From Patescibacteria group bacterium (GTDB lineage: Bacteria > Patescibacteriota > Patescibacteriia > 2-02-FULL-49-11): a DNA stretch of 64,000 nt. The stretch covers positions 28,198 through 92,197 of the forward strand of contig JBAZQN010000003.1 of assembly GCA_041645165.1 (NCBI GenBank), given 5' to 3'. Below the pieces are notes generated by a model. That model worked only from the letters and a program-made list of their open reading frames with translations. It did no database searches and was not told the DNA's origin. Position numbers and translations under genes: made by a program. Below are positions 29,657-48,258 of this stretch, in pieces (positions within the stretch are counted from its first letter, which is position 1; the number at the start of each line of letters is the position of its first letter).

Positions 29657-29710
29657 CTCCGAGGGCGAGATTCGAATCCCAAACCAATCCGCCGCAATTT
29701 CTCTGGCTCC
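29657..29710. repeat. left copy of 54-bp direct repeat (putative attL of genomic island)
   Basis: ctccgagggcgagattcgaatcccaaaccaatccgccgcaatttctctggctcc; identical (1 mismatch) to 48205-48258 which overlaps the tRNA-Asn 3' end. Confidence 0.6.
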
Positions 29711-30034
29711 CTAGCTCGGTCTGGTACTGAAAGTATAGCGGTTTCGCAAGGATTTCCGCGCCTCTTTCTTGATGCCCCGGAACGGAGCTGGGTCAGGCTC
29801 TTAAATGGAGGGATGAGACAAATGAGACAGTTCTTAAGGGCGGTCTTTCGTGTCTCATTTGACGCGACTGTCTCATTCGTGGTCTTCTTATTTCTCACTT
29901 ATAACTTGACCTTCTTCATCTTTGCGATGAACCAACGGATATCGTCGTACGTGACAGAGTCGGGGCACTTTTCTTTGATTGAGCCGAGACGGGCAGGATC
30001 TTCGCATTCGCTCATGGCTTTGAGGGTCGCGCGT

Positions 30035-31303
30035 TCATGGTCGCGGGAAAGAAAGGAGTTGATTACCTAAACAATGATCGCACCCTTGGCAATGGTCCTT
30101 CTGAAGAGAAGAGCCGCCACCGAAATAATCAAGGATGATCTTACGGCGACAGGCGCGGGCGGTGGAATATTCCTGAATTTTCTTAAGTTTCTCATATTTA
30201 ATCACGCGCACGACGGTTGCCTCTTGCAAGGGCTTCCCCCGCTCCAATGATTCCTCATAATTCTTCCCAATGAAGAATTCGTGGAGCGCGCTGTCTTTCC
30301 TGCTATGCAGAAGCACACAGTACGCAATCTCGCCGTCCCTTCCTGCGCGTCCCGCTTCCTGGTAGTAATTCTCCAGAGAGGCAGGCATATGCGCGTGGAT
30401 GACAAAACGGACATCGGGCTTGTCCACCCCCATGCCAAAGGCAATGGTCGCAGTGATTACGGGCACTTCGTCCCGCATGAATTTCTCTTGTACGCGTGTC
30501 CTCTCCTCTGAATCCATGCCTGCATGATACGGAAGCGCCTTAATCCCGTGTTCTTGAAGATACCATGCGAGTTCCTCAGTCTTGTCTCGCGTGCCGCAGT
30601 ACACGATGCCGGAACCTTTCATAGAACGCGCGAGCCGCACTACTTCTTCATCCCGCTCAAAATCGGAGAGATACGCACGGGTGAAGAACCGGAGGTTGGG
30701 GCGGTCAAACCCCCGCACGAACGTTTGGGGATCCTTGAGCCCCAACCGCTTGATGATGTCCGCTTTCACCTCGGGCGTGGCGGTCGCGGTAAAGGCGGCG
30801 AGGATGGGACGCTGTGGGAGGCAGGAAATGTGTTTCTGAATTTCGAGATAATCCGGCCGGAAATCGTGCCCCCACGCGGACACGCAATGCGCCTCATCTA
30901 TGGCGACGAGGGAAACGAAAACTTTCTTCAACATCTCAATAAAGCCGGTGGTCAGACGCTCCGGGGCAACGTAGAGGAGCTTAGTCTTTCCCGCTAACAC
31001 CTCTTGTGTGCGCCGTTCAATTTCGTCATCCGGCAGGGATGAGTTAATAAAACTTGCCGCGATCCCCCTGACGTTCAGCGCATCCACCTGATCCTTCATG
31101 AGCGCAATCAAGGGCGAGATCACCACGGTCGTGCCGGGAAGCGCGAGCGCGGGCAGTTGGAAACACAAGGACTTCCCCCCTCCGGTGGGCATGAGCGCGA
31201 GCGTATCGCGTCCCGCAAGAATACTTGCGACAATCTCCTCCTGCCCGGGACGGAAAGAGACAAAGCCGTAATGGAATTTCAAGAGTTCATCAAGGTCAGG
31301 CAT
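30035..31303 (-). CDS. recQ: RecQ-family ATP-dependent DNA helicase (short form, no HRDC)
   Basis: FRPGQEEIVASILAGRDTLALMPTGGGKSLCFQLPA…DEAHCVSAWGHDFRPDY…C-terminal CQGCDHC zinc motif. Confidence 0.85.
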   Translation of the reverse strand: MPDLDELLKFHYGFVSFRPGQEEIVASILAGRDTLALMPTGGGKSLCFQLPALALPGTTVVISPLIALMKDQVDALNVRGIAASFINSSLPDDEIERRTQEVLAGKTKLLYVAPERLTTGFIEMLKKVFVSLVAIDEAHCVSAWGHDFRPDYLEIQKHISCLPQRPILAAFTATATPEVKADIIKRLGLKDPQTFVRGFDRPNLRFFTRAYLSDFERDEEVVRLARSMKGSGIVYCGTRDKTEELAWYLQEHGIKALPYHAGMDSEERTRVQEKFMRDEVPVITATIAFGMGVDKPDVRFVIHAHMPASLENYYQEAGRAGRDGEIAYCVLLHSRKDSALHEFFIGKNYEESLERGKPLQEATVVRVIKYEKLKKIQEYSTARACRRKIILDYFGGGSSLQKDHCQGCDHCLGNQLLSFPRP

Positions 31304-31385
31304 GGACTCTATTAAACCACCCTCCTTTCATGCATATATGAACGAATGGACACATCTTATTCCGCTGTGGCGCATTTGGCGAATT

Positions 31386-31958
31386 TCAACGCTTCAGCTT
31401 AATCTCATACGCGATCCGCTCCAATTTCACGAGATTGCGCTCCAGGTCGTCATACTTTTCCCGGAGCTTGCCGGAGAAGGATACATGAGAGAGCTCGTCC
31501 ATAATTGATTGCGTTATACGGACATACGACTCAATCTCTTTAAGGTGCGTGGTGTCGGCAATGCTCATGGCCTTGCGCACCAGTTCTCCGGTAAAATCAC
31601 AAACCCCGCCCAGAGCTTCGTCGGTATCGAGAGGAATGAACGATGGGATAGTGAGTCTCCCGCCAGTAAGAAAACTCAAATACGCTTTTGCCTCCACGTA
31701 TTCCTCCAGCGCCTCGCGGAAGAAGCCTTCGGTGGCGAGCAGTGGCTGGCGCGTGAGCAGAGCTTGAACCGATCTCAGAGTGCGTTCGGCATCGGCCAGC
31801 AACCGCTTCCCGTCCTGAAACTTATCCTGCCGCATCAGGGTGATTGCCTGCTTGGCTAGAGAGCGCGTCTGATCGGAAGGCGCCTTCAGCCGATGCCGCA
31901 AGTCTTGATATTGCCGGTAGTCTTTGACTAACCGTCGAAGAGTTTTGGTATCAAACAT
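31386..31958 (-). CDS. translin-family-like helical protein
   Basis: EEYVEAKAYLSFLTGGRL…EALGGVCDFTGELVRKAMS…LREKYDDLERNLVKLE recalls translin DLTGEL block; assignment from memory only. Confidence 0.4.
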   Translation of the reverse strand: MFDTKTLRRLVKDYRQYQDLRHRLKAPSDQTRSLAKQAITLMRQDKFQDGKRLLADAERTLRSVQALLTRQPLLATEGFFREALEEYVEAKAYLSFLTGGRLTIPSFIPLDTDEALGGVCDFTGELVRKAMSIADTTHLKEIESYVRITQSIMDELSHVSFSGKLREKYDDLERNLVKLERIAYEIKLKR

Positions 31959-32067
31959 AATGCGAATGTTAAAATTCGTACCCTTGACGCATCTTGGCGG
32001 GATATGCTATCTTAATACTGCGATAGCACTCTGGAGTATTCCGCAAGGAATAGCTCCAGATTCTTTT

Positions 32068-32577
32068 TTATTGGCTGATCTCGGCTTTTAACTTCCTTAG
32101 ATCAACGAATTTCGCGAGGTTAAGGAGTTCTTTACCGACCCTTCCGCGCGTAGACATCACAATGACCCGCTTTCCCCTTTGTTTAAGCCGCTCCAGAGCG
32201 GGCGCAAAATCGCTGTCGCCGGAAACGAGAACGGCGGTATCGTATTTCTCCGCGAGCTCCACCATTTCAAAGGCGAGTTCAATGTCGAGACTGCCCTTAT
32301 GTTTATTGCCTTCGTTAGTTTTAATCTCTTTGAGCGCTTTGGTACGCAGAATATAACCGTTGATATCGAGCATGTCAAGGAATTTGCGTTCGGCGAGATT
32401 GTTTTCATCGACGGCGGCGTAAGCGAAACACTTCATGCCCTCGCCGCATTCGCGCTTAAGGTACCGCATCAACTTGGCATAAGCAACCTTCCAGCCAAGC
32501 GTGCGCTGCGAATAGAAGACATTAGAAACGTCGATGAAAACGTAGACTTTGCCGTGGACGAATGAGGAAATCATAAT
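32068..32577 (-). CDS. NYN-domain (LabA-like PIN) protein
   Basis: KVYVFIDVSNVFY…DIELAFEMVELAEKYDTAVLVSGDSDFAPALERLKQRGKRVIV: NYN acidic residues and layout. Confidence 0.7.
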   Translation of the reverse strand: MMISSFVHGKVYVFIDVSNVFYSQRTLGWKVAYAKLMRYLKRECGEGMKCFAYAAVDENNLAERKFLDMLDINGYILRTKALKEIKTNEGNKHKGSLDIELAFEMVELAEKYDTAVLVSGDSDFAPALERLKQRGKRVIVMSTRGRVGKELLNLAKFVDLRKLKAEISQ

Positions 32578-32774: not shown

Positions 32775-33743
32775 ATGACCAAACTCATTCGGCTGAAAGT
32801 TTCCCGCATCAAATACACCGGCGATTCCATCGGCGATGACATCCGCATTGAAGTCGAGAGCCTGAACAAGTTCGTGGGGTTGAATATGCGGCTGAAGCGG
32901 GGAAGCGATAGAGCGCTGAATGTCGAAATAGGGCAATTCTTTGGCGACGGTGTGTCGTTCGCCCTGCCAGTAACAATCAGAATCATCGAACGAGATCTAG
33001 TATTCAACGACGTAGGAAGCGTGCAAAAAACGATCAAGGTCAATTTGAGCGACCCTTCGTCTCAACGTAACATCTATACGATAGAAGTGCGGGAACGGCG
33101 CGGTTATCTGACCCGGAAAAAGGCGGTCTTTGAAGTAACTTTGGAAGCAGGCGTGTCGGATACGATTTTGTACGTAGCAGACGAGAGCGGAGACGGCTGG
33201 GTGGTCACCGTGCCAGAACACGGTACCGAGAACATAAGCCTTCCATACCACTTAAAAATCTCGTTAGAAAAATACGATACTAAGCGCCAGTACTTTAAAA
33301 TCATGGAAGGGATCATACAGGGCACGAAGGCTTCAGTACAAATCGAATCAAACGGCACATCACACCTCCGTACTGAAAATCCGCATACCGGATCGGCGCA
33401 TCTCACATATTCGCTTTCTCGAGGAACGTTAAAGATGAACCGTAACGTCTACAAAGTCCTTAACTTCCCCCAAGACCCTGAACCATGGAAAAATGGTCTT
33501 TATGATATCGAAATACCTGACGCGCCGCATGAGCCCGGAGAAGCATATTTAGACCGTGCCAGATTGGCAAAAGTCTGGTTCCGCGTTGGTCACGGCGGAG
33601 AGAGGTACCTCCATACCGGCAGCGTGACACTTGGGTGCATCACGTTGACGGAAGTAGAACGCTGGGATTATATGTGTAAAGTACTCATGAAAGCGCGCAA
33701 AGGCGATGGGGAGAGCATCGGCGTGTTAGAGATAACCGACTGA
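32775..33743 (+). CDS. hypothetical protein with C-terminal YkuD/L,D-transpeptidase-like H…GC motif
   Basis: 322 aa, beta-rich; C-terminus VGHGGERYLHTGSVTLGCITL resembles LDT catalytic His…(S/T)xGC(I/V) signature. Confidence 0.5.
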   Translation: MTKLIRLKVSRIKYTGDSIGDDIRIEVESLNKFVGLNMRLKRGSDRALNVEIGQFFGDGVSFALPVTIRIIERDLVFNDVGSVQKTIKVNLSDPSSQRNIYTIEVRERRGYLTRKKAVFEVTLEAGVSDTILYVADESGDGWVVTVPEHGTENISLPYHLKISLEKYDTKRQYFKIMEGIIQGTKASVQIESNGTSHLRTENPHTGSAHLTYSLSRGTLKMNRNVYKVLNFPQDPEPWKNGLYDIEIPDAPHEPGEAYLDRARLAKVWFRVGHGGERYLHTGSVTLGCITLTEVERWDYMCKVLMKARKGDGESIGVLEITD

Positions 33744-33749
33744 GACTCT

Positions 33750-34727
33750 ATGCACCGAAAATATGCTCTCATCGCGTGTATAAGTCTCATACTCGTGACT
33801 GGCTTGGCCGCGCTGGTTCTCTACCGCTTCCGGGTTTCAGCCCCCTTGCGGAGCGTGCGTGAATTTGGCCCATTAACATTAGGAAGCAGTATGCCGTTAG
33901 CAGGACCGGGAGATTGGACGTTCGCACCGTACAAAAAGATACCTGAGTCAGATTTTTACGTACTCGTCGTCCAATATGATAATTGGTGCATCCAAGCTTC
34001 ATGCAGTCTTGATGGCGCTTTGGTACAAACTATGGGCGGATGGCTGCAAGGAGAAACAACGCGTAATTTCCCAGACTTACCGGAGATCATTGGTTTTGAC
34101 CGGGAAGAAAATAGGAAAGTGAAATCCATCGTCGTCATCGGCGACTCGAAGGGGAGGATTGCCGGCATCTATCCGAACAAGGGCATGGAAGACCTTATCC
34201 CCGTCTTGAAACTCCATCCTGATATTGCCGACTTCAGCCTCTTAAACGGCGTGGACGCATTCGGTCCGCTCAAAGTCGGAGAACCTTCACCGGTACAGCC
34301 CGGCAATCCGACCGGCTACCAGGCGGGAGCGCCAACGTCGTTTCCTTACATCCAAATACCAGCAGGAAAAAAATTTTATGTATTCTCATTTCAACAAGAA
34401 CTAACGGGAACAGGCTATTGCGCGTTCTGGAATTGCATCACGAGCAACTATGGCTACCGTAACTATACCGCGAACTATGTTGAAGATTTGGGCGGGTGGT
34501 GGTCAAGCGACGGATTACCTGAAACGGCACGGAAATTCGGCCTTGACCCTAACCGCGTGGCAAAAGGAGAAGCCTCGCTCGTGGTCGTGACCGACCCCTC
34601 CGGCGCCATCGTCGCCATTCATCCCAACAAAACCATACGGGACATCCTCTCCATCCTGCGGCAACTTCCCGAACTCGCTGACGTGGAACGGTTATTCGGG
34701 GACCGCGCCGACGACGCTCCCATTTGA
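33750..34727 (+). CDS. membrane-anchored protein with two tandem thioredoxin/redoxin-like domains
   Basis: N-terminal TM helix; internal duplication; each half has hydrophobic strand + WC..C-like motif (YVLVVQYDNWCIQASC / YVFSFQQ…YCAFWNC) and peroxiredoxin-like C-terminal strand (KSIVVIGDSKGRIAGIYPN / ASLVVVTDPSGAIVAIHPN). Confidence 0.45.
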   Translation: MHRKYALIACISLILVTGLAALVLYRFRVSAPLRSVREFGPLTLGSSMPLAGPGDWTFAPYKKIPESDFYVLVVQYDNWCIQASCSLDGALVQTMGGWLQGETTRNFPDLPEIIGFDREENRKVKSIVVIGDSKGRIAGIYPNKGMEDLIPVLKLHPDIADFSLLNGVDAFGPLKVGEPSPVQPGNPTGYQAGAPTSFPYIQIPAGKKFYVFSFQQELTGTGYCAFWNCITSNYGYRNYTANYVEDLGGWWSSDGLPETARKFGLDPNRVAKGEASLVVVTDPSGAIVAIHPNKTIRDILSILRQLPELADVERLFGDRADDAPI

Positions 34728-34732
34728 AAATG

Positions 34733-35032
34733 CTATGCCTTGATCCTCGTTAAAAACGACGGCGAGACGTTCCATTGGCGCCCATCGCCAGTCTTGATTG
34801 TTACGCTCCGGCGGTTGAGTTTCATGACGATGCCGACGATCTGCTTCCCCTCATGTGTAAAGTACACTCTGTCCATGAGATTGAATTTCGCAAGACCCTT
34901 CAAGTCACGGGCTTTGTGATAGAGCTTTAATCGTTCAACGACCATTCGGTTAAGCAGCCTCAAATCTTCTTCACTCAAACGATTGAGGAAATGCTCGAAT
35001 TCGGTGACAGGTTGGAGATGTTGATCCGGCAT
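34733..35032 (-). CDS. hypothetical small protein
   Basis: 99-aa ORF 3 bp downstream of pRiA4b-like gene; C-terminal beta-rich segment (VYFTHEGKQIVGIVMKLNRRSVTIKTGDGRQWNV). Confidence 0.4.
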   Translation of the reverse strand: MPDQHLQPVTEFEHFLNRLSEEDLRLLNRMVVERLKLYHKARDLKGLAKFNLMDRVYFTHEGKQIVGIVMKLNRRSVTIKTGDGRQWNVSPSFLTRIKA

Positions 35033-35035
35033 ACA

Positions 35036-35638
35036 TTAATCAAGCGCAGGATATTGTTCGGGCGCGACGCCGCGCTGGTCTATCACGCGCGGAAAATCGC
35101 GTGCTGTTTCTTGTTTATCAACGTGACGCGTTCCTTTCAACTTAACATCAAACCTGTGGCCGTCGCCAAAGTCAAACATGAATTCCAGCCTTGGGTGCCG
35201 GGAGTAATCGAGGTCGCAGATGCGGATTTCGTCTGTCTTGAACGTCGGATGCGGATCGTCTTCCCAACCCGGCGCAAAAAACGCAATGGATGAACCGGTG
35301 AACAATGGATCTGGTCTTTTACGCGTGTCGAGAAATTCAAAACCGTGCATGTGATCGTTATCCCAGCACATCGACTCAATTATCGTCTCGGCAAGATCGC
35401 AAAAAGTCTGCGTACCCAAAATTGCGATATCCCGCCATACAGGCCTTTTCAGGAGATACGTTGCACGGAACGCATACACCGCATCTTTGGGATTCTTGTC
35501 CGTAAAATTTTTCTCAAACTCCAGCTTATACTCCTTGTACTTCTTCAGCACTTCCTGTAAATACTCAACATGCCGCTCTTCTGTTATGGCACGATTGATA
35601 CTCTCGTGAAAATTACCTTCTTGGATTTTTGGGTGCAT
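35036..35638 (-). CDS. plasmid pRiA4b ORF-3-like family protein
   Basis: MCWDNDHMHGFEF and FMFDFGDGHRFDV blocks match the W.D.HLH.F / DFGD motifs of PF07929 as I recall them. Confidence 0.5.
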   Translation of the reverse strand: MHPKIQEGNFHESINRAITEERHVEYLQEVLKKYKEYKLEFEKNFTDKNPKDAVYAFRATYLLKRPVWRDIAILGTQTFCDLAETIIESMCWDNDHMHGFEFLDTRKRPDPLFTGSSIAFFAPGWEDDPHPTFKTDEIRICDLDYSRHPRLEFMFDFGDGHRFDVKLKGTRHVDKQETARDFPRVIDQRGVAPEQYPALD

Positions 35639-35758
35639 ATATAAGGCAGCTAAGCCATAGCGATACGCATACGGTCCATGGCGGCATTCCCACAACGCCC
35701 CCCTCGCTTTCAACGCCGACGGAATTTGTGCCAGCAGAAAGCTCTCGCGCCGCTTTAT

Positions 35759-38627: not shown

Positions 38628-40082
38628 TCATGTTTTATTATCAACCCCCCTTGAAAATAAACCCTTGGGCATCTCTTGCCCAGGCTTTCTATAGTAACGA
38701 TCCTTTTTTGCCTTACCAATTTTTTCTAGCAGTCCTTTTTCAACCCAGGCCTTCAAAATCCTAGACATTCTTAAGACATCGTGTACGCCGGTTGTTTCAC
38801 GGGCCTGTTTATTCGTAATGCGATAGTTTGCATCTAAATATTTACTGACGGTATCCCAATATTCAACTTTTTGCAGATTAAGAAGTATAAGCAACACCGA
38901 GTTCGGTTTTATTGTCGGCGGAAAGTATAACGGTTCGTATAGATTTTTCTCTTTCATCACTTTATACATACGATCAACGCCTTCTCCAATATCCAGGTTT
39001 GGAGCAACTTGAAAACGATTCAATGTTCTTAATATTAAAGGGTTTCTGGCGAATCTTTCTGACCGTATATTTTCAGTAGTGATGTGTCCCGGATAAGTCC
39101 CCGGACTTTCCACCTCAACACGATCGTCAAAGAATCTAACCTGTATATCGTTCTGGACAAAATAATTTCTATGAATAACTGCGTTCGTAATAGCTTCTTG
39201 AAATGCCCACTCGGGAATCATAAAAGTTGGTCTAAATGAGGCGCCGCTTAGTTTTGGTCGAGAACTTTTCGCCACACTCTTAAAATAGTCAACAGCTTTT
39301 TCTATCTGATGCAAGAGAGATCCTTCAAGAGTAAATGGCCGGTCTACAAAATTTGGCTCACCTGTATAATTTGGTTTGGTCCCATAATAGTGAGAAATTT
39401 TAATTCCGCATTTATTTTTCAACATAACCGATGGATTTTTACCGAACAATAAGACTCCGGCTGTGGTGAGCTCGTGCTTTCCAGCTTGATCAATCGAAAG
39501 TCCGTTATCTTTCAAAAACTGCCAGTCATTCAAGCTTTCACTTGCGGTATCCTTTTTATATTGCTTCAGTAAATTTTCATCCACGTCGTCGAGCGTAAAA
39601 ATGTCTGATTTCTCACTTTCAAATTTTATAGCGCCCTTCTCATACTTAAGACGCATTATTTCCGTAGAGCCGATTTTTACATTCTGCCTGCCTTTCCTTA
39701 CGAAAGTATCGCCGCGCTTGAGGGAATGCACATCATTGCTCTTTTTTACACTCACTACAAACAACTTGTCCGGCTGCCTATTCACATTGGTTATATCGAG
39801 TTCAAATTTTCCCCAAAGATTAAGCGGTGGTTCAATTTCTTTTTCAATGAGCTTCAAAAACTCTGAAATATTATCCAGGTTTTCACTGATTCCAAGTAGT
39901 CGTTTGTGGCCTTCTGCTTTTGACGGATCTTCAAGCCCAACGACAATGTAACCACCTTCCGTATTTGCAAAGGAAACAACCGTCTCTAAAAGTTTCGCCG
40001 GCTCAATAGCGGCTCGCTTACACTCAAAAGTCTGCCACTCCTGGGTATCTAGAAAAATCTTTATTATTTCTTGGTCATTCAT
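38628..40082 (-). CDS. AlbA_2 (Schlafen-like) DNA-binding + HATPase_c_4-type ATPase protein with C-terminal wHTH
   Basis: N-terminal divergent-AAA/AlbA_2 fold (…VSFANTEGGYIVVGLED…), central region often mis-annotated as RecG C-terminal domain, C-terminal HTH; start overlaps mod stop (ATGA). Confidence 0.65.
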   Translation of the reverse strand: MNDQEIIKIFLDTQEWQTFECKRAAIEPAKLLETVVSFANTEGGYIVVGLEDPSKAEGHKRLLGISENLDNISEFLKLIEKEIEPPLNLWGKFELDITNVNRQPDKLFVVSVKKSNDVHSLKRGDTFVRKGRQNVKIGSTEIMRLKYEKGAIKFESEKSDIFTLDDVDENLLKQYKKDTASESLNDWQFLKDNGLSIDQAGKHELTTAGVLLFGKNPSVMLKNKCGIKISHYYGTKPNYTGEPNFVDRPFTLEGSLLHQIEKAVDYFKSVAKSSRPKLSGASFRPTFMIPEWAFQEAITNAVIHRNYFVQNDIQVRFFDDRVEVESPGTYPGHITTENIRSERFARNPLILRTLNRFQVAPNLDIGEGVDRMYKVMKEKNLYEPLYFPPTIKPNSVLLILLNLQKVEYWDTVSKYLDANYRITNKQARETTGVHDVLRMSRILKAWVEKGLLEKIGKAKKDRYYRKPGQEMPKGLFSRGVDNKT

Positions 40083-42235
40083 ATATTCACCTCAATTATC
40101 TTCATCGTATCATTGCCGAAAATATCCACGACCTTGATTGCAAGCTTGTGCTTGCCCTTTCCAAGCTCGCGGGAAATAGATGTAAGTTCAAGCTCGCGCT
40201 TCTTCTTCGTACGGAAATCCTGCCACTCGTTTTCAAACACATAATCGCCAGTCCATACTTCTTCATATTCCAAGAGGTTCACCTGCGTTGGATTCGTTGA
40301 GCCGTCCAGTTTTATCTGCGTGGCTTCTTTTTTGGGTACGCGAACAACTTCTTTTTTGCTCTCAAAATTAAAATCAACCGCCCAATAATCAATCCAGTCC
40401 GTCCATTTTTTCGTGAGCGTCTCTCGCTCCACAATACCATCTTTGTCTTTGGATATTTTGATGATTTGGCCGTTTTCCACCACCAGCTTTTTACCCCCGG
40501 CTTTAAGATTTTCCTCAACTTCTTTGATTGAATCCTGATTATAAAATACTGAAAAATCAGTCAGCTCAACCGCTACCATTCCTTTTTTAACAATAGGTTT
40601 TACTTCAATATAGCTCACATCATGGAATACTACTTGATTCTTCTCAATCGCGCGCTTGTCAAACACATCGCGGGGAATGTATTTGAGCGCGAGATCAACG
40701 CCTTTGCCTTTGGCTTCTTCCTGAATGTTGGGAAATAATCCCATTTCAAACTCAAACGCCAAAACATCAACTTTGGTGATTTGCTTTTCAACTGCTTCTG
40801 TTATCACCGCGTCAACGAACAGCCGCGAGACCGGCATATTGATTGGCCCAATGGCAACGAGGCGAGAATTTTTCTTACCATGAAATGTTTTAAAGCCGTC
40901 AAAACTTTCGGCTTTGTATGCCGAAATAATAAGTGCAATAAAATCTTTTTCTTTTTGAGCGATTTGCTTTTGTTTCTCATCTTCGCGCAGGTTCGGATTG
41001 ATACCAACAAACATCTGGCGTTCGTATTTTCCGAGATTTAAAATTTCAAAGGCGCGAAAATCTTTTCCCGCTTTTGCCAGTTCACGCTGAACACCAATCA
41101 TTCGCTTGCGAGTTGTATGAATTGAGAATTTGCCTAAATCAGAACCAATCCACTTACGCCCGAGCTTTTCCGCAACAGCGAGCGTAGTACCCGAACCAGC
41201 AAAAAAATCCGCAACGAGATCGCCTTCGTTAGACGATGCTTTAACAATTCTCTCTAATAAATCTTCATGTTTTTGAGTAGGATAACCAACTTTTTTGTCC
41301 CCTCTTAACGCTGGCAATTCGATAAAATTATCGGCCTTGTTTTCCGTAACTTCAAAATAAACAATTTTGCCATTTTCGTCTCTTAGTCTTTGGGCTTTCC
41401 CCGTAACTGGATCCCAGACATGCTTGCTTGCGGTTCTAAATCCTTCTTCATTTTTAATTTTTTCGTAAACAATATTCCAGATATGCTCACCCTTGTTTTT
41501 TGCGTAATAAAATACCGTCTCGGTATTTTGATGAAATTTTTTCGACAAAGCTTTTAAACCTACTGCTGTGTAATGTATGACAATTTCATTTTGAAAATTA
41601 TTTTCATTGAATATCTCATCCAGTAATATTTTAATATACGGGCTTACTCTCCAATCGCAATGCACATAAATACTTCCATCTTCAGCAAGTAAACCGTGCA
41701 TAAGCGACAATCTCTCATATATCATCGCGATAAAACTATCCGCGCCCTTGCCCCATGTGTCACGATACGCTAATTCTTCCAGCACGCCGGGCTTTTTAGT
41801 AAATTCTTCTTCCCCGACTTCAATGTTCATTGAAAAATCCGCACCAACATCAAACGGCGGATCAATGTAAATCAATTTAATTCCACCTTGTTCTTGGATT
41901 TCTTGCCGAAGCGGACCATTTTTCAAACTGGAAAGGATTAATTTGTTGTCGCCCCAAATGAGCTTATTCGTCCATCCTTTGAGCTGGCGGCCGCGAGTGT
42001 CCACGTCAAACAGGGCCTGCTGGAGCTTGACCTCTTTTTCGCTTCTCGGCTCATCAACCTGCTCAATAACTTGAAATGGCAAAACGACATTCGTAACCTC
42101 ACTCGTTTTTCCATTCCAGACAAGCTCCACCTCCTGCTTATCCGCAAAAAGCAAAAAACGATATTTATCCGGCAACGGCTTATCGGCTTCCAAGTATTTG
42201 ATAATATCCCGTTTTTCGTTATCTGCTATTTTCAT
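40079..42235 (-). CDS. mod: Type III R-M DNA methyltransferase Mod subunit
   Basis: IYIDPPFDVGADF (DPPF motif IV) and DFFAGSGTTLAVAEKLGRKWIGSD (motif I FxGxG) in N6/N4-MTase beta-class order; 718 aa. Confidence 0.85.
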   Translation of the reverse strand: MKIADNEKRDIIKYLEADKPLPDKYRFLLFADKQEVELVWNGKTSEVTNVVLPFQVIEQVDEPRSEKEVKLQQALFDVDTRGRQLKGWTNKLIWGDNKLILSSLKNGPLRQEIQEQGGIKLIYIDPPFDVGADFSMNIEVGEEEFTKKPGVLEELAYRDTWGKGADSFIAMIYERLSLMHGLLAEDGSIYVHCDWRVSPYIKILLDEIFNENNFQNEIVIHYTAVGLKALSKKFHQNTETVFYYAKNKGEHIWNIVYEKIKNEEGFRTASKHVWDPVTGKAQRLRDENGKIVYFEVTENKADNFIELPALRGDKKVGYPTQKHEDLLERIVKASSNEGDLVADFFAGSGTTLAVAEKLGRKWIGSDLGKFSIHTTRKRMIGVQRELAKAGKDFRAFEILNLGKYERQMFVGINPNLREDEKQKQIAQKEKDFIALIISAYKAESFDGFKTFHGKKNSRLVAIGPINMPVSRLFVDAVITEAVEKQITKVDVLAFEFEMGLFPNIQEEAKGKGVDLALKYIPRDVFDKRAIEKNQVVFHDVSYIEVKPIVKKGMVAVELTDFSVFYNQDSIKEVEENLKAGGKKLVVENGQIIKISKDKDGIVERETLTKKWTDWIDYWAVDFNFESKKEVVRVPKKEATQIKLDGSTNPTQVNLLEYEEVWTGDYVFENEWQDFRTKKKRELELTSISRELGKGKHKLAIKVVDIFGNDTMKIIEVNI

Positions 42236-42255: not shown

Positions 42256-42588
42256 CTACAGGTTTTTTGGAGAAGGTGGCGAATTGTTTTCATTATAGCA
42301 ACTCTCGCACTCCCAATACTCAAAACACCCATACGGTTTTGGGTCCTGGTTGAGAACTCGGAGAGTAAAATTACCGATGCGTTCCGTTTTGTGCCCCGCT
42401 TTCTTGGCTCTCTGAAATTCTGCTTTTGAAATTTTCGGTACCTTGCCGAAGTAATGCCCGCCGAGGTAGGAGCGGTTAGCACTAAGCCTGATAGAAACAG
42501 CACATCCGCAAATGCTGCACTGACGTGCGAGCACCCGAGCCGTCACCCGATCTTTGAGATTTTTAGTGAGAGTTAATGGCCTTGCCAT
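42256..42588 (-). CDS. small zinc-ribbon protein
   Basis: CSICGC … CESC cysteine pairs; ~110 aa from MARPLTL; 20 bp upstream of mod. Confidence 0.4.
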   Translation of the reverse strand: MARPLTLTKNLKDRVTARVLARQCSICGCAVSIRLSANRSYLGGHYFGKVPKISKAEFQRAKKAGHKTERIGNFTLRVLNQDPKPYGCFEYWECESCYNENNSPPSPKNL

Positions 42589-42663
42589 ACCTCCATGATC
42601 CCACAAAAAACGGCTTGGGGCAAGGAAAAACGTGGCAAACATACTGCAAATTTGCCACATCGC

Positions 42664-43200
42664 CTAGACGCCGCCTGACAATTTATACTTGGCATGGCGT
42701 TGATCGCCCAGCCGCGCCACAAGACCGCGGTTGATGAGTTCTTTGAGCCGGTTAGTCGCGGTAGTGTCGGTGACGTGGAACGCATCCCGAATATCCTGAT
42801 TGGTGACCAGCGTGCCCTTCTGTTTGATGAAATCCACGATCTCCTGAAGACGCGCTTCATACTGCGCGCGCTTCCTGGTGTGTGCAAGCGTGAGATTGGC
42901 GTCCAGCTTGTCCTGAAATATACGGTCTTTGTCCGCATCCGTGAGCGGCTTCTCTACCTCTTTTATAACTTCTTTCACCACAGGCTCTGCGACAGGCGAC
43001 GTATCGTGTGTCTCCTGAATAGGTGGCTCGCTTTCTAGCGAAGGCGCGTCCGGTGCAGGCGGTTCAAATATAGACGATGGTTCTACCTCCGGCGCGGGCT
43101 CTATAACAGTCACCGGTTCAGCGACTGGAGCAGGTTCGGCAACTGGCGCAGGCGAAACCGGCGCGCTTTCCGGCATGGTCTCTTCTGAAGGCGCATCCAC
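42664..43200 (-). CDS. Pro/Ala/Glu-rich protein with C-terminal winged-helix DNA-binding domain
   Basis: N-terminal PAPVAEPAPVAEP low complexity; C-terminal TLVTNQDIRDAFHVTDTTATNRLKELINRGLVARLG HTH. Confidence 0.5.
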   Translation of the reverse strand: MDAPSEETMPESAPVSPAPVAEPAPVAEPVTVIEPAPEVEPSSIFEPPAPDAPSLESEPPIQETHDTSPVAEPVVKEVIKEVEKPLTDADKDRIFQDKLDANLTLAHTRKRAQYEARLQEIVDFIKQKGTLVTNQDIRDAFHVTDTTATNRLKELINRGLVARLGDQRHAKYKLSGGV

Positions 43201-43323
43201 CTGCGCACTATCACTTGGGATTATAGTACTCTCATCGCTTATACATTAAATTCTCTCAAACCCGTCGTAGGCCCTTTCGTGCGAAAGGTATCACGACAAC
43301 AAATAAATTTTATGCGATGAGGA

Positions 43324-43767
43324 CTATCCGCCGACAACGGCTGGTGGAGTCTTCGCTTGCCGCTTGAGGCGGCGATGCGTGCGGATGATGAGAATGATGC
43401 TTACAATAAAATATATCAGACCCAAAAGTGATCCATAAAATTCTCCGCTCCCAATCCCCAACGAATTACCGTCTCCGTTAGAACTATCCAGCACGATAAA
43501 AAGAATAGAAAGGGGAATATATATGCGGGCGAATTTGAACCAGTTAATAAAAACCTCCTTCTTTAAAAAAGCAAGTATAAACAGAAATGCCGATATTCCT
43601 ATTGACCACGCGAATACGACGCCAGCAACGGTGTCAAAAAAATTAAGGCAATCCCACCTAGCATTCATACAAATCCCACCATAATCTACCCGCGCAAGTA
43701 ATACTGATGCTACAGTTAAAACCAAGAGAAAAACGATACTAATGATCAATTTTTTGGTGTGTGTCAT
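43324..43767 (-). CDS. 4-TM membrane protein (paralog of 44559-44978)
   Basis: 147 aa hydrophobic; C-terminal IRTHRRLKRQAKTPP resembles VRENVKLRRSKQTTP of paralog. Confidence 0.5.
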   Translation of the reverse strand: MTHTKKLIISIVFLLVLTVASVLLARVDYGGICMNARWDCLNFFDTVAGVVFAWSIGISAFLFILAFLKKEVFINWFKFARIYIPLSILFIVLDSSNGDGNSLGIGSGEFYGSLLGLIYFIVSIILIIRTHRRLKRQAKTPPAVVGG

Positions 43768-43779
43768 AGGCAGTAGTTA

Positions 43780-44493
43780 TTATACCAACGAAGCCCGTAT
43801 CGTTTCAATGATTTGGATAAGCGGCTGGGCATCCGATGGTTTGATGAGGAACTTGGGGAAACCCTGCAATTGTTTGACCAATCCCTTGAGAATACCATCG
43901 GCGGCCTTCACAAGTCCTTTGTCTAGTAGTTTCTCCGCCACTTCTAATTGCTTGATAACCGCATTCTTCACTCCTTTCTTAATGGCAAGCGTATTCACCA
44001 CTTGCTTAAGCGCTTTGAGCGATTCCTTCGGATCGGGTTCTGCCGAAGGGGAAACGGTAACATCCGGCGTGCCGTCTCCCTGCAGATCAATTGAAAGACT
44101 GCTTGTAGTCTCAACTGTTTGCGTGATGAGGAACGCTTTGGTGTCTGGCGTGACGGGTATATTCGTATAGGCGGTAGAGTCAACCACTTCGTCATTAAAC
44201 ACCTCATCGATTTCGAGCGTGAACGATCCGAGAGCAAGACCCTGAATCTCGATGCGGTACTGATCTTGCGTATCCAAGCCCAGGTAAGTCTTTTCTCCTA
44301 TTTTGTAGTAATAACTATTGGGGACTTGCGCTTCGAAAAGTTGATCATTTGAATTTGGGACGGGGCCGGTGTGGTTGCCGAAGGAATTGGTCATATAACG
44401 GTCCTTTTGCGACACCCTCTCGAGGCGATACACGTAACAAATCAAACGCAAAAATCCCCCTAAAAAGGGAGAATCCACAAAGCTTAAAAGCAA
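43780..44493 (-). CDS. truncated paralog of the lipase-like protein (C-terminal domain only)
   Basis: Aligns along ~190 aa with the C-terminus of 44994-47999 (…TLEIDE…IPV…GDGT.DVTVSP…LK.VV.TL.I.KG.K.A.I.QLE.AEK…FP.FLI.P.DA..LI.II..IR..LV); no signal peptide; possibly a gene remnant. Confidence 0.45.
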   Translation of the reverse strand: MLLSFVDSPFLGGFLRLICYVYRLERVSQKDRYMTNSFGNHTGPVPNSNDQLFEAQVPNSYYYKIGEKTYLGLDTQDQYRIEIQGLALGSFTLEIDEVFNDEVVDSTAYTNIPVTPDTKAFLITQTVETTSSLSIDLQGDGTPDVTVSPSAEPDPKESLKALKQVVNTLAIKKGVKNAVIKQLEVAEKLLDKGLVKAADGILKGLVKQLQGFPKFLIKPSDAQPLIQIIETIRASLV

Positions 44494-44558
44494 TTGTGGA
44501 TTAGTTAGTAGGGAAGCGGATTTATGGACTGTCGCCCAATTGAGGTTTTGCAGCTGGG

Positions 44559-44978
44559 TTATTTGTTTGGAGTGACTGGAGACGACGGTGTTGTCTGTTT
44601 TGATCGGCGGAGTTTGACGTTTTCACGTACAATAAGGATGATGGAAGTTAGTAAGAAAATAACAACCATTGTCCATGTGATTGATTCGTGATCAATGCCT
44701 ACACTAAAACCCATTCCTGTCTCACCGGTTGCTGGTGCGAGAATTATGAGTACAAAAGCGATGAGGAGATAAACACGGGCGAAATTTAGCCATGATTGAA
44801 AAACCTTGATCTCCATGAATGTCATGGTAAGTGAGAGTAGAAATACTATTACAGAGAAGTAGGCGATTGCTGCGCCGGACTCTCCAACAGAATCTGACTC
44901 TGAGTAATTTAAAAAAGCACCTAGCAAAAAGCTGATCACCGATAGGAATAAGATTTTTTTAGGGTTAATTTTCTGCAT
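44559..44978 (-). CDS. 4-TM membrane protein
   Basis: 139 aa, hydrophobic, paralog of 43324-43767; immediately downstream of lipase-like gene. Confidence 0.5.
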   Translation of the reverse strand: MQKINPKKILFLSVISFLLGAFLNYSESDSVGESGAAIAYFSVIVFLLSLTMTFMEIKVFQSWLNFARVYLLIAFVLIILAPATGETGMGFSVGIDHESITWTMVVIFLLTSIILIVRENVKLRRSKQTTPSSPVTPNK

Positions 44979-44993
44979 ACGCGTATCGCGTCT

Positions 44994-47900
44994 TTATTGT
45001 ACCAACCGCCCCCTTATCTCGTCAATGATCTTAATAAGCCGCGTCGCATCCTCGGGGCTAATAAGAAACGTGGGAAAGTGTGTAAGTTGAGTCGTCATTG
45101 TTTTGAGAATTTGGCTCGCCACCTTGGGAAACCCTTTCTTGACGACCTTTTCCGCAGCTTCTATCTGTGCGATCAGCGCTTTTTTGAGACCCTTTTGGAT
45201 ATCAAGAGTCTGAACTATCTTTTTCAATATTACCAACGACACCCCCGCGTTGTCGGCTGTATCAGGAGTCACCGTTATATCATTCGTTCCGTTCCCATCA
45301 ATGTCCATATTCAAATTAATGGGCGTTAGTCCAGTATCTGTTGTTTGTACCGTGAGTGTCGCTATGGTGTGTTCGGCAACCGGGATATTTCTGATGGCCG
45401 TAGAGGCGACAAGTGTATCACCGCGCGCTTCGTCAATTTCGAGCGTAAAGGTGCCAAGATCCGTGCCTTTCAGGACGACGCGAATCGGTTCGCTTCCGTC
45501 CGCCCCAGCGTATTTCACTTCACCGGACTCCATGTAGTAGCTGTTCGGTATCGTCTTTTCATAGAGCCGGATATCTGAATCGGGATCAGAATTTTCTATC
45601 AAGCCCGTATGGCTGCCCAACGCATCGTAGAGATGAATGTCAACTGGCGAATGCAGGGTGAAATCTATGGTTGTGTCTGAGGATCCCTGTGTCGGCTCTG
45701 TTACGGTGATGTGTTTAGTGTTCTCTCCTTCTTCAGGGTGTTCTTTCCCCTGGATGATATTGACAATGAACTCCTGCAGATCATCTATTTCGAAGATGCT
45801 GCCGTGATCTCGATTTTTTCTAAGTCGAAGATTCTCTTTATTATGTTTTCTTATATTCACATAATACCGATCCACTCCCTCCATCATGAGCGCGCTGGGC
45901 AGCACGACCGTTCCATCGCCTTGTATAGTCATCGGTTTGACTGTTTTATCGAGCGAACTGAGAGAAGCGCAGAAGAGACCGCATGAATACGTGATATGCG
46001 AAATCGTCTTAACACCCCATCCGGCAACTTGCACTACCTGCATGTGCGGGGGCGGCGACCATATATCGAGCGTGTCGTTATGCGTGGCTATAGCCCGCGA
46101 GAGAAGGTGCGGTTTGAGCACGTTGGGGTATTCGGCATCTTCCTTGTCAGGTTCTTGTCGCGTTCCTTCATCGCCTAAGAGGAATTTGTAAAGTTCTTCA
46201 GAAGAGGAAATATGTGCACCCGCGCGATTCACAAGCGCACCAAGTTTGCTGACACTTTCATCGAAGTTGATGACTGGCGTATGCACGATGTCGAAATACT
46301 TTTCTGACGGCAGAAGATCATACGCGCTTATCATGTTTTCCGCGGCCTCGCGCGCACGTTCTTCGTCCATGAGGAAACCGATATCATCAAAAGGCAGCTG
46401 CGCAGACTCGGCGTGCAGAAGCGCCTCAATCGCTTTCGGCGTGCCTAGCTGTGGCGGAGCAACCATGACGAGACGGTCAATATGATTGTAAAGATCGTGG
46501 TAAGGGTGATTTTCGTTTGCAATCTGAGTCAGAAGCGTTTTAGCGATCAAGCCGCCCATGCTATGCGTAATAATGGTGACATTGCCGCTTTTCGAAGATA
46601 CAATAAGTTTTTTTATCTCTTCGAGGAGATAGGGCGTTTCAGTGACTCCACTGTTGTAATTGACATTTTCTCCGTCCACGATACCGCTTCGTATGAGGTG
46701 TTCGAAATCAAGGCGCCAATCGTAGGGAAGGGCTTTCCACTCGTTGATGATTCCGTCATCGTCATCTGCTAATTCATCCATGAACTTTTTAAATTTTTCA
46801 TAGAAATTTGCCTGCAATACTCCGGTCGGGTCTGGAATAATATTGGCTTCGTCAATGATGTCGCGGGTATAAATACTTTTATCCAGACTTTCTCCTGTGG
46901 TAGAAGATGTATATAATTTTTCCACGTCAAAATTTCGATTTGGTTCCCACAGTTGATTTTCGAAAATTTCTTTTTTGTAGAGTCTGCTACCTTGAATACC
47001 AGGAAGAAACGCCACATTCGAGTAGCCTGTTTCGAATGTGAGTTCTCCGGTTGCGGGTAATCGCGATGACTCCTCGCCGTCGCTGGTTTCAAAATGGTAT
47101 TGGTAATGCCCTTTGGGGAAGGTATCGGTGCGGACGTATTGTTCTCCGTTGGTGTAATTGCCATCGCGCAGCGAGATAGGTATGGTTTCGGCAGTGTCAG
47201 GCTGCAGGAAGCTAAGGATGGCTCCGGTGCCGTCGTCTCTGGAGATTGCCACATACGGCGGCGGATCATTGTCGGCGTCGGTGTAAATTATCTTAAATAC
47301 GAGCGGGGTAACATCCGCCGTGCCCTTGTCCGGATTGATACCGTCGGTTCCATAACCGCTCTCGGCAGAGAATGAAAGGATGGGCGCGTGATTCGAGGGG
47401 AGCGCGGGGGTGAGGGTAAAGGTGAAGGGGCCATCCACCCATGGTTGGCCAAGATACCGCCAGTGTTCACCGTCCGTGGCTTGGAAATAGTATTCGTAGT
47501 TAGCGGCGTACGGAAATCCCGCTGGTACGGTTACGGTAAATTGCTCGCCGTCCGTATAATCTCCATTGTGGAGGAGAGGGAAAACGGGATCGGGAGCGGT
47601 GTCGCGGTGCAGGCGCAGTTCAGTAAAGAAAAATGGGTAACTTTCGGTGGTGCTGACGAATAGTTTGATCGCTTCTTCCGTTTCATCGTCGTCATGCGCG
47701 AGCGCGGCAGGGATGAAATCGTGGCGCGTCAGTACGGGCGCTGCGATGACCGGAGGATGGTTGTCCGGATGGGTGTAAACCATGGAAAAGGTGAGCGGGG
47801 TATTGGCAGGCGCGGTGTCAAGATTAATTGCGTCCGTACCGTCAAACCCTTCGGCGGGAGAGAAGGCGAGCGTGGGAGGGTGCGCAGGAAAAAACGCCCT

Positions 47901-47999
47901 TGCCGGATCGACCGGATTGGGAAGAATGGAAGCAATCGCCCAGGCCGTAACAGTGCCTATGAGAAGTAAGGAAATGCGTTTGAGAATTGAGAAGTGCAT
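44994..47999 (-). CDS. secreted multidomain protein with LCAT/PGAP1-like alpha/beta-hydrolase (lipase) domain
   Basis: N-terminal signal peptide; two repeated beta-domains (…NGDYTDGEQF… / …DGNYTNGEQY…); ALPYDWRLDFEHL and VTIITHSMGGLIAKTLL (GxSxG nucleophile) typical of LCAT-like lipases; 1001 aa. Confidence 0.6.
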   Translation of the reverse strand: MHFSILKRISLLLIGTVTAWAIASILPNPVDPARAFFPAHPPTLAFSPAEGFDGTDAINLDTAPANTPLTFSMVYTHPDNHPPVIAAPVLTRHDFIPAALAHDDDETEEAIKLFVSTTESYPFFFTELRLHRDTAPDPVFPLLHNGDYTDGEQFTVTVPAGFPYAANYEYYFQATDGEHWRYLGQPWVDGPFTFTLTPALPSNHAPILSFSAESGYGTDGINPDKGTADVTPLVFKIIYTDADNDPPPYVAISRDDGTGAILSFLQPDTAETIPISLRDGNYTNGEQYVRTDTFPKGHYQYHFETSDGEESSRLPATGELTFETGYSNVAFLPGIQGSRLYKKEIFENQLWEPNRNFDVEKLYTSSTTGESLDKSIYTRDIIDEANIIPDPTGVLQANFYEKFKKFMDELADDDDGIINEWKALPYDWRLDFEHLIRSGIVDGENVNYNSGVTETPYLLEEIKKLIVSSKSGNVTIITHSMGGLIAKTLLTQIANENHPYHDLYNHIDRLVMVAPPQLGTPKAIEALLHAESAQLPFDDIGFLMDEERAREAAENMISAYDLLPSEKYFDIVHTPVINFDESVSKLGALVNRAGAHISSSEELYKFLLGDEGTRQEPDKEDAEYPNVLKPHLLSRAIATHNDTLDIWSPPPHMQVVQVAGWGVKTISHITYSCGLFCASLSSLDKTVKPMTIQGDGTVVLPSALMMEGVDRYYVNIRKHNKENLRLRKNRDHGSIFEIDDLQEFIVNIIQGKEHPEEGENTKHITVTEPTQGSSDTTIDFTLHSPVDIHLYDALGSHTGLIENSDPDSDIRLYEKTIPNSYYMESGEVKYAGADGSEPIRVVLKGTDLGTFTLEIDEARGDTLVASTAIRNIPVAEHTIATLTVQTTDTGLTPINLNMDIDGNGTNDITVTPDTADNAGVSLVILKKIVQTLDIQKGLKKALIAQIEAAEKVVKKGFPKVASQILKTMTTQLTHFPTFLISPEDATRLIKIIDEIRGRLVQ

Positions 48000-48089
48000 G
48001 AGGGTAAGGATAATCCCTCCAAGTATGCCATTACCGTATCACGCGGACGGAATTGCGCAAGTGGATATATTTTCTGTTTGTTTTCTTGT

Positions 48090-48164
48090 CCCCCGATCAG
48101 GTGAGGACAGCGTCTGGATCCCCGATCAAGTCGGGGATGACAGGTGGAGAGCGCGGGAATGACA
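48090..48164. repeat. family-1 element, partial/rearranged copy e
   Basis: ctggatccccgatcaagtcggggatgac…gcgcgggaatgaca. Confidence 0.5.
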
Positions 48165-48167
48165 AAA

Positions 48168-48207
48168 CAAAAACACCCCGTAAAAGGGGTGTTAAAAATC
48201 AAAACTC
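48168..48207. repeat. conserved hairpin module (copy 2)
   Basis: caaaaacaccccgtaaaaggggtgttaaaaatcaaaactc; compare 23741-23778. Confidence 0.5.
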
Positions 48208-48258
48208 CAAGGGCGAGATTCGAATCCCAAACCAATCCGCCGCAATTTCTCTGGCTCC
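48205..48258. repeat. right copy of 54-bp direct repeat (putative attR), overlapping last 7 nt of tRNA-Asn
   Basis: ctccaagggcgagattcgaatcccaaaccaatccgccgcaatttctctggctcc. Confidence 0.6.

Follow-up and report, generated by a model that had tools for sequence, protein, structure and literature searches.

Direct repeats made of tRNA-Asn 3' ends bracket a putative CIME-like segment at a recombination hot spot in a Patescibacteria genome

We analyzed a 64-kb stretch of DNA from a Patescibacteria group bacterium (64,000 nucleotides of contig JBAZQN010000003.1, in the following called the window), in which two nearly identical 54-bp repeats bracket 18.5 kb of DNA beside a gene for tRNA-Asn(GTT). 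The tRNA-Asn site is a recombination hot spot with different cargo in related genomes, and the bracketed DNA consists mostly of long-resident genes of this bacterial group that were reshuffled at the hot spot, not of a freshly acquired mobile island. The reading that we favor, with a probability of roughly one half, is that the repeats enclose an old segment that resembles a cis-mobilizable element (CIME) and lacks an integrase, that this segment is part of a tandem-accretion hot spot at the tRNA-Asn, and that a recombinase whose gene lies elsewhere has recently joined it anew at GGAG(CCA) cores.

The 54-bp repeats and a tRNA-Asn nested in an older copy

The 54-mer (CTCCGAGGGCGAGATTCGAATCCCAAACCAATCCGCCGCAATTTCTCTGGCTCC) has two copies in the window, the left, distal one (DR-L) with 0 mismatches and the right, tRNA-proximal one (DR-R) with 1 mismatch (Table 1), and the chance expectation from shuffled sequences was 0 matches. 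The copies are identical at 53 of 54 positions, as an earlier reading made from the letters alone (the sequence-only reading) had reported, and both stand in direct orientation, in the manner of attL and attR. A further ~15 bp of upstream similarity described in the same reading did not hold up, since the identity extends by 1 base only (55 nt, 98%, 29656-29710 and 48204-48258). DR-R overlaps the last 7 nt (GGAGCCA) of the tRNA-Asn(GTT), which had been claimed as well and on which ARAGORN and Rfam agree. On the tRNA strand the repeat is composed of GGAGCCA, a 10-nt spacer (GAGAAATTGC) and the blocks GGCGGAT TGGTT TGGGA TTCGAAT CTCGC CCT(C/T)GGA G; this remainder is tRNA-Asn-like and corresponds to the 3' strand of an anticodon stem, a variable loop, a T arm and the 3' strand of an acceptor stem.

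The working tRNA (T*) gives only 7 nt of the repeat; a disrupted tRNA-Asn copy of greater age has a 3' half that matches the remaining 37 tRNA-like nt. This 3' half is called H3' in DR-R and H3 in DR-L, and the identity between H3' and the 3' end of the working tRNA is 77% over 31 nt. The anticodon arm of the older copy, whose 5' half is H5, is occupied by an insert of ~110 nt that holds the working tRNA-Asn. The single difference between the repeats (CCTCGGAG) makes the acceptor strand of DR-L perfectly complementary to H5, where DR-R gives a G.U pair. After H5 a helix arm (CAAATTCTCTGGCT) pairs with AGCCAGAGAAATTG in the repeat, and the 231-nt region is predicted to fold so that the tRNA-Asn cloverleaf tips a 21-bp helix inside an outer shell (-97.3 kcal/mol, z = -5.4). 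ARAGORN in intron mode did not call the outer shell as a tRNA, and the T stem of the shell is broken. H5 was aligned with a shell in L087 and with the tRNA of L089 (L083-L123 designate the contigs compared with the window, those of relatives being metagenome assemblies); in L087 a homologous shell without an inner tRNA lies downstream of a normal tRNA-Asn. The palindrome TCCGCC-N3/4-GGCGGA recurs within tRNA-like scars of the window, L087 and L104.

When compared with the tRNA-Asn genes of nine related Patescibacteria loci, T* showed 74-81% identity, while six of these nine genes are 86-94% identical to one another. Being a sequence outlier, the working tRNA-Asn is probably imported, that is, a xenologue, and the shell would be what remains of the resident gene. 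A scan of viral contigs for a source of the working tRNA found nothing.

The two repeat copies differ at 1 of 54 positions, as compared to an identity of only 78-85% between homologous non-coding segments of the window and its relatives. This means that the repeat pair is young and postdates the lineage splits, whereas the gene order within it predates them. The repeat is missing from all relatives examined, and in L102 and L109 the homologous junction goes without a ~50-nt stretch (the repeat remainder plus TCA) after GGAGCCA. DR-L is made up of the last 7 nt of M, a decayed tRNA 3'-end remnant, and this ~50-nt stretch, which is flanked there by GGAGCCA and GGAGTCA. An A/T-rich terminator to the left of DR-R (48171-48207) has its best match at 23742-23778 (86%). 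Read by eye, all five module junctions of the window (Table 1) lie at tRNA-Asn 3' ends of the GGAG(CCA) type.

The tRNA-Asn site in related genomes

The rpoD gene adjoining the tRNA-Asn is at most 74-75% identical to rpoD of the GTDB species representatives, which are all metagenome-assembled genomes of Patescibacteria (Candidate Phyla Radiation, CPR), and a neighboring protein of 119 amino acids (aa) equals NCBI MFA4872663.1, 'Patescibacteria group bacterium'. Exact look-ups of the rpoD, DUF5674 and DnaG proteins returned no record. Contigs of the same strain (Logan SRR8449827 and ENA ERZ27249422) are 100% identical to the window except for one stretch of Res, the restriction gene of a Type III restriction-modification (R-M) cassette; these contigs break at the repeats, and no alternative junctions were seen in them. 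Two ENA ERZ27249422 contigs (L083 1-1160 and L085 21900-22501) differ from the window only in the 3' portion of Res (window 35760-37159), where they switch to a second allele that is 85% identical and then run into a YerC/TrpR-like gene. This apparent variant after Res was discarded as a chimeric join with the second Res allele, which in L083 and L085 probably stems from another Type III R-M locus or another strain of the sample.

In the nearest relatives (L089-L098 and L111, rpoD flank ~92% identical to the window at the nucleotide level) a plain tRNA-Asn is followed at once by the unit t1 (TTTTGACC...terminator...GGGAGTTCGAACC) and then by PRK, aminotransferase and HAD genes. After the HAD gene come a decayed tRNA 3'-end remnant ending in GAGCCA, the non-coding unit S, an LCAT-like gene (41% aa identity to the lipase of the window) and small membrane proteins; L095 carries an HNH and Dam-type methylase pair at a position comparable to that of the Type III R-M cassette. 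The more distant L087 (~85%) reads tRNA-Asn, shell without inner tRNA, t1, LysM, remnant plus S, N-terminal lipase fragment, orf99 fragment, AEP-TOTE helicase and NYN. A third arrangement is seen in L101, L102, L106 and L109, where an NYN block, a AATGAGACA array, M, S and the lipase gene follow one another. This order is that of the window segment circularly permuted across the junction that circularization would create, and S stands where the window has the ~50-nt stretch plus t1'. In L102 terminase genes lie beside this block. L117, finally, has orf99 (88% aa identity), NYN (87-93%) and, further on, RecQ (85%), DUF4153 (89%) and Zip. The proposal that the repeats are att-like and tRNA-derived is supported, and they sit at a site that holds different cargo in related genomes; the comparison with relatives that had been suggested as a check yielded this different cargo, and no empty tRNA-Asn site was found.

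S is a conserved non-coding unit that in many Patescibacteria contigs directly follows tRNA-Asn-CCA or its remnants, and in most it stands upstream of a lipase gene. It consists of a stem (CTAGTGCGCGGTTC / GAAxCGCGCAGTAG), a variable insert and then a terminator; besides the copy in the window, we located copies in L107 (14612-14736), L087 (12205-12345) and L089 (11230-11345). A scan for S junctions returned 13 metagenome contigs, one of which (L107) has an intact tRNA-Asn-CCA with S directly after it, and the other 12 have remnants of ~30 nt, (G/A)GTTC(T/G)AAC...GGAGCCA, before S. These patterns match what repeated integration at the 3' end of a tRNA leaves behind, namely a regenerated target plus displaced fragments (PMC4383910). 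As a candidate structured RNA S was rejected: it belongs to no Rfam family, and its stem is conserved with no compensatory changes, and hence no covariation, in 7 sequences.

A second and fuller copy of t1 (terminator plus GGGAGTTCGAACC) lies at 23.7 kb and is 78% identical over 67 nt to L089 8198-8264. Together with S outside DR-L this copy indicates that the accreted array reaches to at least 23.7 kb and holds at least one older layer, so the left boundary that the sequence-only reading had drawn at 29657 has to be moved outwards to ~23.7 kb. The t1 copy is a candidate for the outer boundary of an older accreted segment, and the GH130-GH130-DUF4153 segment is the candidate for the older unit itself.

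The conserved island-end block, which overlaps DR-L, is 79-85% identical to L101, L102, L106 and L109, where it is followed directly by S and the lipase gene. Within its array four copies of AATGAGACA are packed into 66 bp, two per orientation, and the window has no further exact copies. In L118 the first two copies, the first half of the array, sit just past the RecQ stop codon. The array may serve as protein-binding sites or form a long hairpin. Arm sites for an integrase were also considered for it, which is unproven, as no copies are found near the other repeat and the first half is native after the RecQ stop in L118. Viral contigs with the array 18-mer have only this short motif in common with the window.

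Content and composition of the bracketed DNA

No recombinase family was matched between the repeats in Pfam, PHROGs, NCBIfam or PADLOC, in agreement with the sequence-only reading, and none was found elsewhere in the 64-kb window. Non-coding DNA inside the repeats adds up to 1368 nt, in gaps of at most 324 nt, which leave no room for an integrase pseudogene. PHROGs gave only weak winged helix-turn-helix (wHTH) matches when the bracketed DNA was searched for phage structural, packaging, replication and regulation genes, and it thus does not qualify as a prophage or satellite. Of a transposon the locus has a 14-bp inverted repeat, with one arm inside the direct repeat, but neither a transposase nor a clear target duplication goes with it.

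The claim that the 18.5 kb form one acquired accessory island was not supported by composition and homology. The genes for Res, the SLFN-type ATPase and Mod have a GC content of 0.40-0.44 and a GC content at third codon positions (GC3) of 0.38-0.45, as compared to a GC3 of 0.54-0.68 in neighboring genes. Two small membrane open reading frames (ORFs) are also low in GC3, plausibly through their amino-acid composition. RecQ, translin, NYN, the two unknown proteins, orf99, PRiA4 and the lipase have a GC3 of 0.54-0.64, with 0.52-0.68 in the flanking genes. The GC profile dips at 35-46 kb, and the island as a whole is not of foreign composition. Hence, the compositional shift that had been expected over 29.7-48.2 kb was seen for the R-M trio, but most other genes resemble the flanks. 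The Type III R-M cassette is the only block of clearly foreign composition and is a separate recent arrival, and the second Res allele in the same ENA sample supports the mobility of this cassette. Homologues of RecQ, NYN, orf99, the 322-aa protein and the lipase exist in related Patescibacteria, in matching order as far as it is readable, and the synteny with L117 comes near the observation that the sequence-only reading had itself set against an island, that of related strains with this gene content at tRNA-Asn but without the repeat.

The gene content had been correctly called (RecQ, translin-like, NYN, unknown proteins, PRiA4_ORF3, Type III R-M with ATPase, and the lipase module), and Pfam and PADLOC agree with it. 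RecQ has thousands of Patescibacteria homologues, the closest being 84-86% identical, similar to flanking core genes. Full-length RecQ in relatives of the L118 type has 640 aa with HRDC and HTH_40; in the window a frameshift results from an internal deletion of 533 nt, and past the stop (29900-30045) the last ~49 C-terminal codons persist as a relic. Homologues of NYN are 62-93% identical at the aa level in L087, L102, L109 and L117, and one in an IMG/VR contig is 68% identical. The family of the 322-aa protein spans Patescibacteria, including contigs of up to 621 kb, and in L118-L123 homologues of the 322-aa and 325-aa proteins adjoin RecQ. The structure model of the 322-aa protein (predicted local distance difference test, pLDDT, 91.9) consists of beta-sandwiches with C2-domain matches and is not a recombinase fold; nor is the 325-aa protein a recombinase. 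An LD-transpeptidase-like motif noticed in it by eye had no Pfam or PDB sequence support and only a weak fold match to DpaA at rank 46, and no such function is claimed. The 5' part of the 322-aa gene with its upstream sequence (32722-33160) is 91% identical to L109 534-978, and the adjoining NYN only 67%, which suggests a recent recombination patch between lineages. The gene orf99 has a homologue of 88% aa identity in L117 and a fragment in L087. The gene for the SLFN/AlbA_2 and HATPase_c_4 protein (38628-40082) lies between mod and res, shares 4 nt at its 5' end with the 3' end of mod, and also matches a 'pAgo'-labelled PADLOC model (4e-30). Lipase homologues are 41% identical in L089 and L095 and, over N-terminal fragments, 61-70% identical in L087, L101, L102, L106 and L109, always just downstream of S. 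DUF4153 adjoins RecQ in L117.

Table 1. Features of the repeat-bracketed region and its borders, in window coordinates
Feature	Coordinates	Strand	Basis and remarks
Second, fuller t1 copy (terminator plus GGGAGTTCGAACC)	23715..23778	-	after DUF4153 gene; preceded by CCTAGAGAG
GH130 (two genes), 61-aa ORF, DUF4153	23855..29120	-	between S and outer t1 copy
S, conserved non-coding unit with own terminator	29500..29656	-	directly outside DR-L
DR-L, left distal repeat copy	29657..29710	-	as DR-R with one difference (CCTCGGAG)
Conserved island-end block	29704..29896	-	array of two AATGAGACA and two TGTCTCATT (29812-29877), then decayed tRNA 3'-end remnant M ending GGGAGCCA
RecQ-family helicase, 422 aa	30035..31303	-	Pfam; shorter than 640-aa relatives
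Translin-like gene	31386-31958	-	Pfam
NYN nuclease gene	32068-32607	-	Pfam
322-aa all-beta protein and 325-aa protein with hydrophobic N-terminus (by eye)	32775..34727	+	no Pfam matches
orf99 and PRiA4_ORF3-like gene	34733..35713	-	Pfam
Type III R-M cassette: Res, SLFN/AlbA_2-HATPase_c_4 ATPase, Mod	35759..42235	-	Pfam, PADLOC
134-aa Zn-ribbon-like ORF (by eye), wHTH protein, three small membrane/unknown proteins, 1001-aa LCAT-type lipase	42256..47999	-	Pfam
t1', terminator unit directly 3' of DR-R	48165..48204	-	homologous to tRNA-Asn flank of L089 and L111 and to post-shell sequence of L087
DR-R, right tRNA-proximal repeat copy	48205..48258	-	GGAGCCA of working tRNA-Asn, GAGAAATTGC, H3' ending CCTTGGAG
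T*, working tRNA-Asn(GTT) with encoded CCA	48252-48326	-	ARAGORN and Rfam, 75.4 bits; single tRNA there
H5, 5' half of disrupted older tRNA-Asn	48328..48390	-	acceptor TCCGAGG, D stem, 16-nt D-loop palindrome, anticodon-stem 5' strand, then CAAATTCTCTGGCT
Module junctions			T* / spacer-H3'; H3' / t1'; M / spacer-H3; H3 / S; CCTAGAGAG / t1

Elsewhere in the window, perfect direct repeats of 45 bp (54133-54177 and 55449-55493) that duplicate the first 15 codons of guaA flank a glycosyltransferase gene (54209-55522) with a low GC3 (0.45). In L087 and L089 this gene is missing from the interval that separates the adenosine deaminase gene from guaA. It has the look of a small inserted gene cassette by which the start of guaA was copied. 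Short intergenic palindromic families resembling repetitive extragenic palindromes occur at 1592-1685, 9730-9834, 11229-11394, 12929-13001 and 48084-48142 (e.g. TCTGGATCCCCGAT...ATCGGGGATGACA and TGTCATTCCCGCGAAGG.GGGAATC). A 78-nt repeat ending in TCGCGTCCGCAGAAAAATTGTGTATTC is found in three intergenic regions (3606-3683, 5597-5674 and 50423-50500), one of them between dnaG and rpoD, and the dnaG-rpoD region of L089 matches its copies as well; possibly, this repeat is a shared promoter or leader. DnaG of L087 (5256-8258) has 1000 aa with a faint LAGLIDADG match in Pfam and probably contains an intein, and DnaG of the window has 605 aa.

Explanations of the repeats and relation to known systems

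In the reading that we favor, the 54-bp repeats would be attL/attR-type duplicates of a recombination site made of tRNA-Asn 3' ends, and they would bracket a CIME-like segment without an integrase in a multi-layer accretion array downstream of the tRNA-Asn. Most bracketed genes would have been at the locus since before the related lineages split, with the Type III R-M cassette as the only recent one. Most likely, the present repeat pair would have arisen between alternative GGAG(CCA) cores, either through excision and re-integration or through unequal exchange and a later deletion, and the catalyzing recombinase would be encoded outside the island. The order of these events and any mobility at the present day are put forward in the same conditional sense. 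For the repeats themselves, 'decayed or mobilized in trans', as the sequence-only reading had it, appears to be the best label.

Several observations weigh against this reading. As the searches identified no recombinase, its catalysis is something that we purely infer, and the GGAG core was derived by eye from five junctions. Exact scans with a 24-mer of the repeat core in viral and metagenome contig collections, and with a 22-mer of it in 80 rpoD loci from genome contigs, gave no match, and among the contigs compared only those of the same strain carry the repeat. Neither an empty site nor a circular junction nor an intact, integrase-bearing relative of the element was found among the relatives and contigs compared. 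Most bracketed genes are of native composition, and the synteny of L117 runs across DR-L (RecQ-DUF4153-Zip), so that the bracketed DNA acts like chromosome and not like an element. Finally, the relatives are known from metagenome contigs, chimeric joins occur in one assembly, and L087 and L117 are maybe not from the same organism.

Some of these points return in the most serious alternative, which we consider possible but clearly not the likelier course of events. It does without site-specific mobility: microhomology-mediated copying, unequal homologous exchange or gene conversion in a repeat-rich region would have copied ~50 nt of tRNA 3' flank between the GGAG of M and the CCAA starting S, and the 18.5 kb would be plain chromosome. 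The direct joining of M to S in L102 and L109, where the ~50-nt stretch is absent, is what this would predict, and the GGAGCCA and GGAGTCA at the ends of the extra segment offer a 7-nt microhomology. The native composition of the genes, the L117 synteny across the repeat and the failure to find a recombinase gene fit equally, and the abundant small palindromic repeats could promote rearrangement. However, each module junction falls at a tRNA-Asn 3' end, like the remnants in 13 unrelated contigs, which random breakage would not give; the cargo at the site differs in each related lineage, and the circular permutation in L102 and L109 suggests a circular intermediate.

A more far-reaching proposal appears doubtful to us. 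In this Patescibacteria clade a trans-acting recombination system would shuffle chromosomal modules at tRNA-Asn 3'-end cores (GGAG/CCA), and the working tRNA-Asn would be a small mobile cassette of a new kind, complete, xenologous and with inverted repeats of ~20 bp, that inserted in the anticodon arm of the resident tRNA-Asn and took over its function, so that a dead tRNA would now enclose a working one.

That a single foreign island of 18.5 kb was lately inserted next to the tRNA-Asn and later lost its integrase is improbable and largely refuted. The near-perfect 54-bp direct repeats overlapping the tRNA 3' end, the defence-type cargo and the GC dip at 35-46 kb all speak for such an insertion, but only the R-M trio is clearly foreign in composition, and RecQ is as similar to its counterparts in close relatives (84-86%) as are the flanking core genes. 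Moreover, the 322-aa family is kept across Patescibacteria, contigs of up to 621 kb included, relatives have counterparts of lipase, orf99, NYN and RecQ, in matching order where this is readable, the order continuing into the genes of the left flank, and t1', at the tRNA-proximal inner end, is homologous to the chromosomal tRNA flank of relatives.

Very unlikely, too, is an element of ~18.6 kb with 14-bp terminal inverted repeats (CAAATTCTCTGGCT at 48331-48344 and AGCCAGAGAAATTG at 29695-29708) that inserted into the old tRNA-Asn at its anticodon arm (H5 plus H3 of DR-L) and brought a replacement tRNA-Asn. In its favor, the inverted repeat does exist, the working tRNA is an outlier in sequence, the acceptor strand of DR-L pairs perfectly with H5 where DR-R gives a G.U pair, and S, which in L107 is the native partner of tRNA-Asn-CCA, comes after DR-L. 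The right-hand arm, however, is also found inside DR-R beside the tRNA, and a 110-nt cassette thus explains the inverted repeat equally well; no transposase gene was found, the interior genes are native and syntenic with relatives, and the adjacency of H3' and t1' matches the tRNA-t1 arrangement of relatives. We give hardly any credence to the repeat as a functional RNA or regulatory module held in two copies by selection (e.g. a tRNA-like 3' trailer, a processing or a decoy element), for despite the strong predicted structure around the tRNA and a weak Y-RNA-like architecture of long stem plus tRNA-like module, only the tRNA passed the Rfam scan, with Deinococcus_Y_RNA rejected far below threshold (E = 0.13, 21.7 bits against a gathering score of 80), the left copy is without the 5' partner H5 that the fold needs, the T stem of H3 is broken, ARAGORN sees no tRNA in it, and the repeat is missing from all relatives examined.

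The CIME-like reading also has to be placed among known systems. Islands in the Islander database are tyrosine-integrase islands in tRNA or tmRNA genes, with displaced fragments as the signature of integration (PMC4383910). As in these, one end of the bracketed segment is formed by the intact tRNA-Asn(GTT) and the other by a direct repeat of 53/54 identity that is a displaced piece of the target gene, the cargo at the same tRNA varies between relatives, and decayed 3'-end remnants mark older events. It differs in that no internal tyrosine or serine integrase gene was found, that the working tRNA is overlapped by 7 nt only, the rest being the 3' half of an older copy, that the cargo is mostly native in composition and syntenic with relatives, and that no empty site is documented; no genome reading tRNA-repeat-S-GH130 was found, and relatives hold other cargo yet also homologues of the island genes.

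The anatomy matches the definition of CIMEs and tandem accretion, as exemplified by the ICESt1-related elements of Streptococcus thermophilus (PMC5704250). Repeats of the attL/attR kind are kept (98% identical), no integration or transfer genes were detected, and the segments form an array bounded by copies of the target gene's end. Unlike in those systems, a cognate functional integrative and conjugative element, integrative and mobilizable element or prophage with the same att site was not found here, and mobilization is putative; the terminase genes beside the homologous block in L102 and the NYN homologue in a viral contig are the only hints of such an element. The host is moreover a Patescibacteria (CPR) genome in which conjugative machinery is not evident. 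Dehalococcoides carries tandem islands at the single-copy ssrA gene with identifiable integrases (PMC3146451). They resemble the present locus in repeated site-specific insertion at one small-RNA gene of a small genome and in 3'-end direct repeats between modules, and they differ from it in their integrases, none of which has a counterpart here. The foreign-composition Type III R-M system with its embedded SLFN-type ATPase inside a variable region resembles defence islands and R-M cassettes in hot spots, but these would cover only 6.5 kb of the 18.5 kb and leave the tRNA-derived repeats unexplained.

Taken together, tRNA-site accretion arrays and CIMEs are already known as a kind, and the present case is one from an under-studied phylum. 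The small genomes of Patescibacteria are usually called streamlined, and to our knowledge little has been charted of the integrated elements in these bacteria and of the sites where they attach. The locus described here is a tRNA-Asn hot spot built up in layers, with scars of tRNA ends from several generations and modular exchange of genes for defence and surface enzymes, with no resident integrase, and it cautions against calling every repeat-bounded segment next to a tRNA gene a foreign island. The probably imported tRNA-Asn that is nested in a disrupted older copy would be an unusual way to keep a tRNA gene that is probably single-copy working through recombination.

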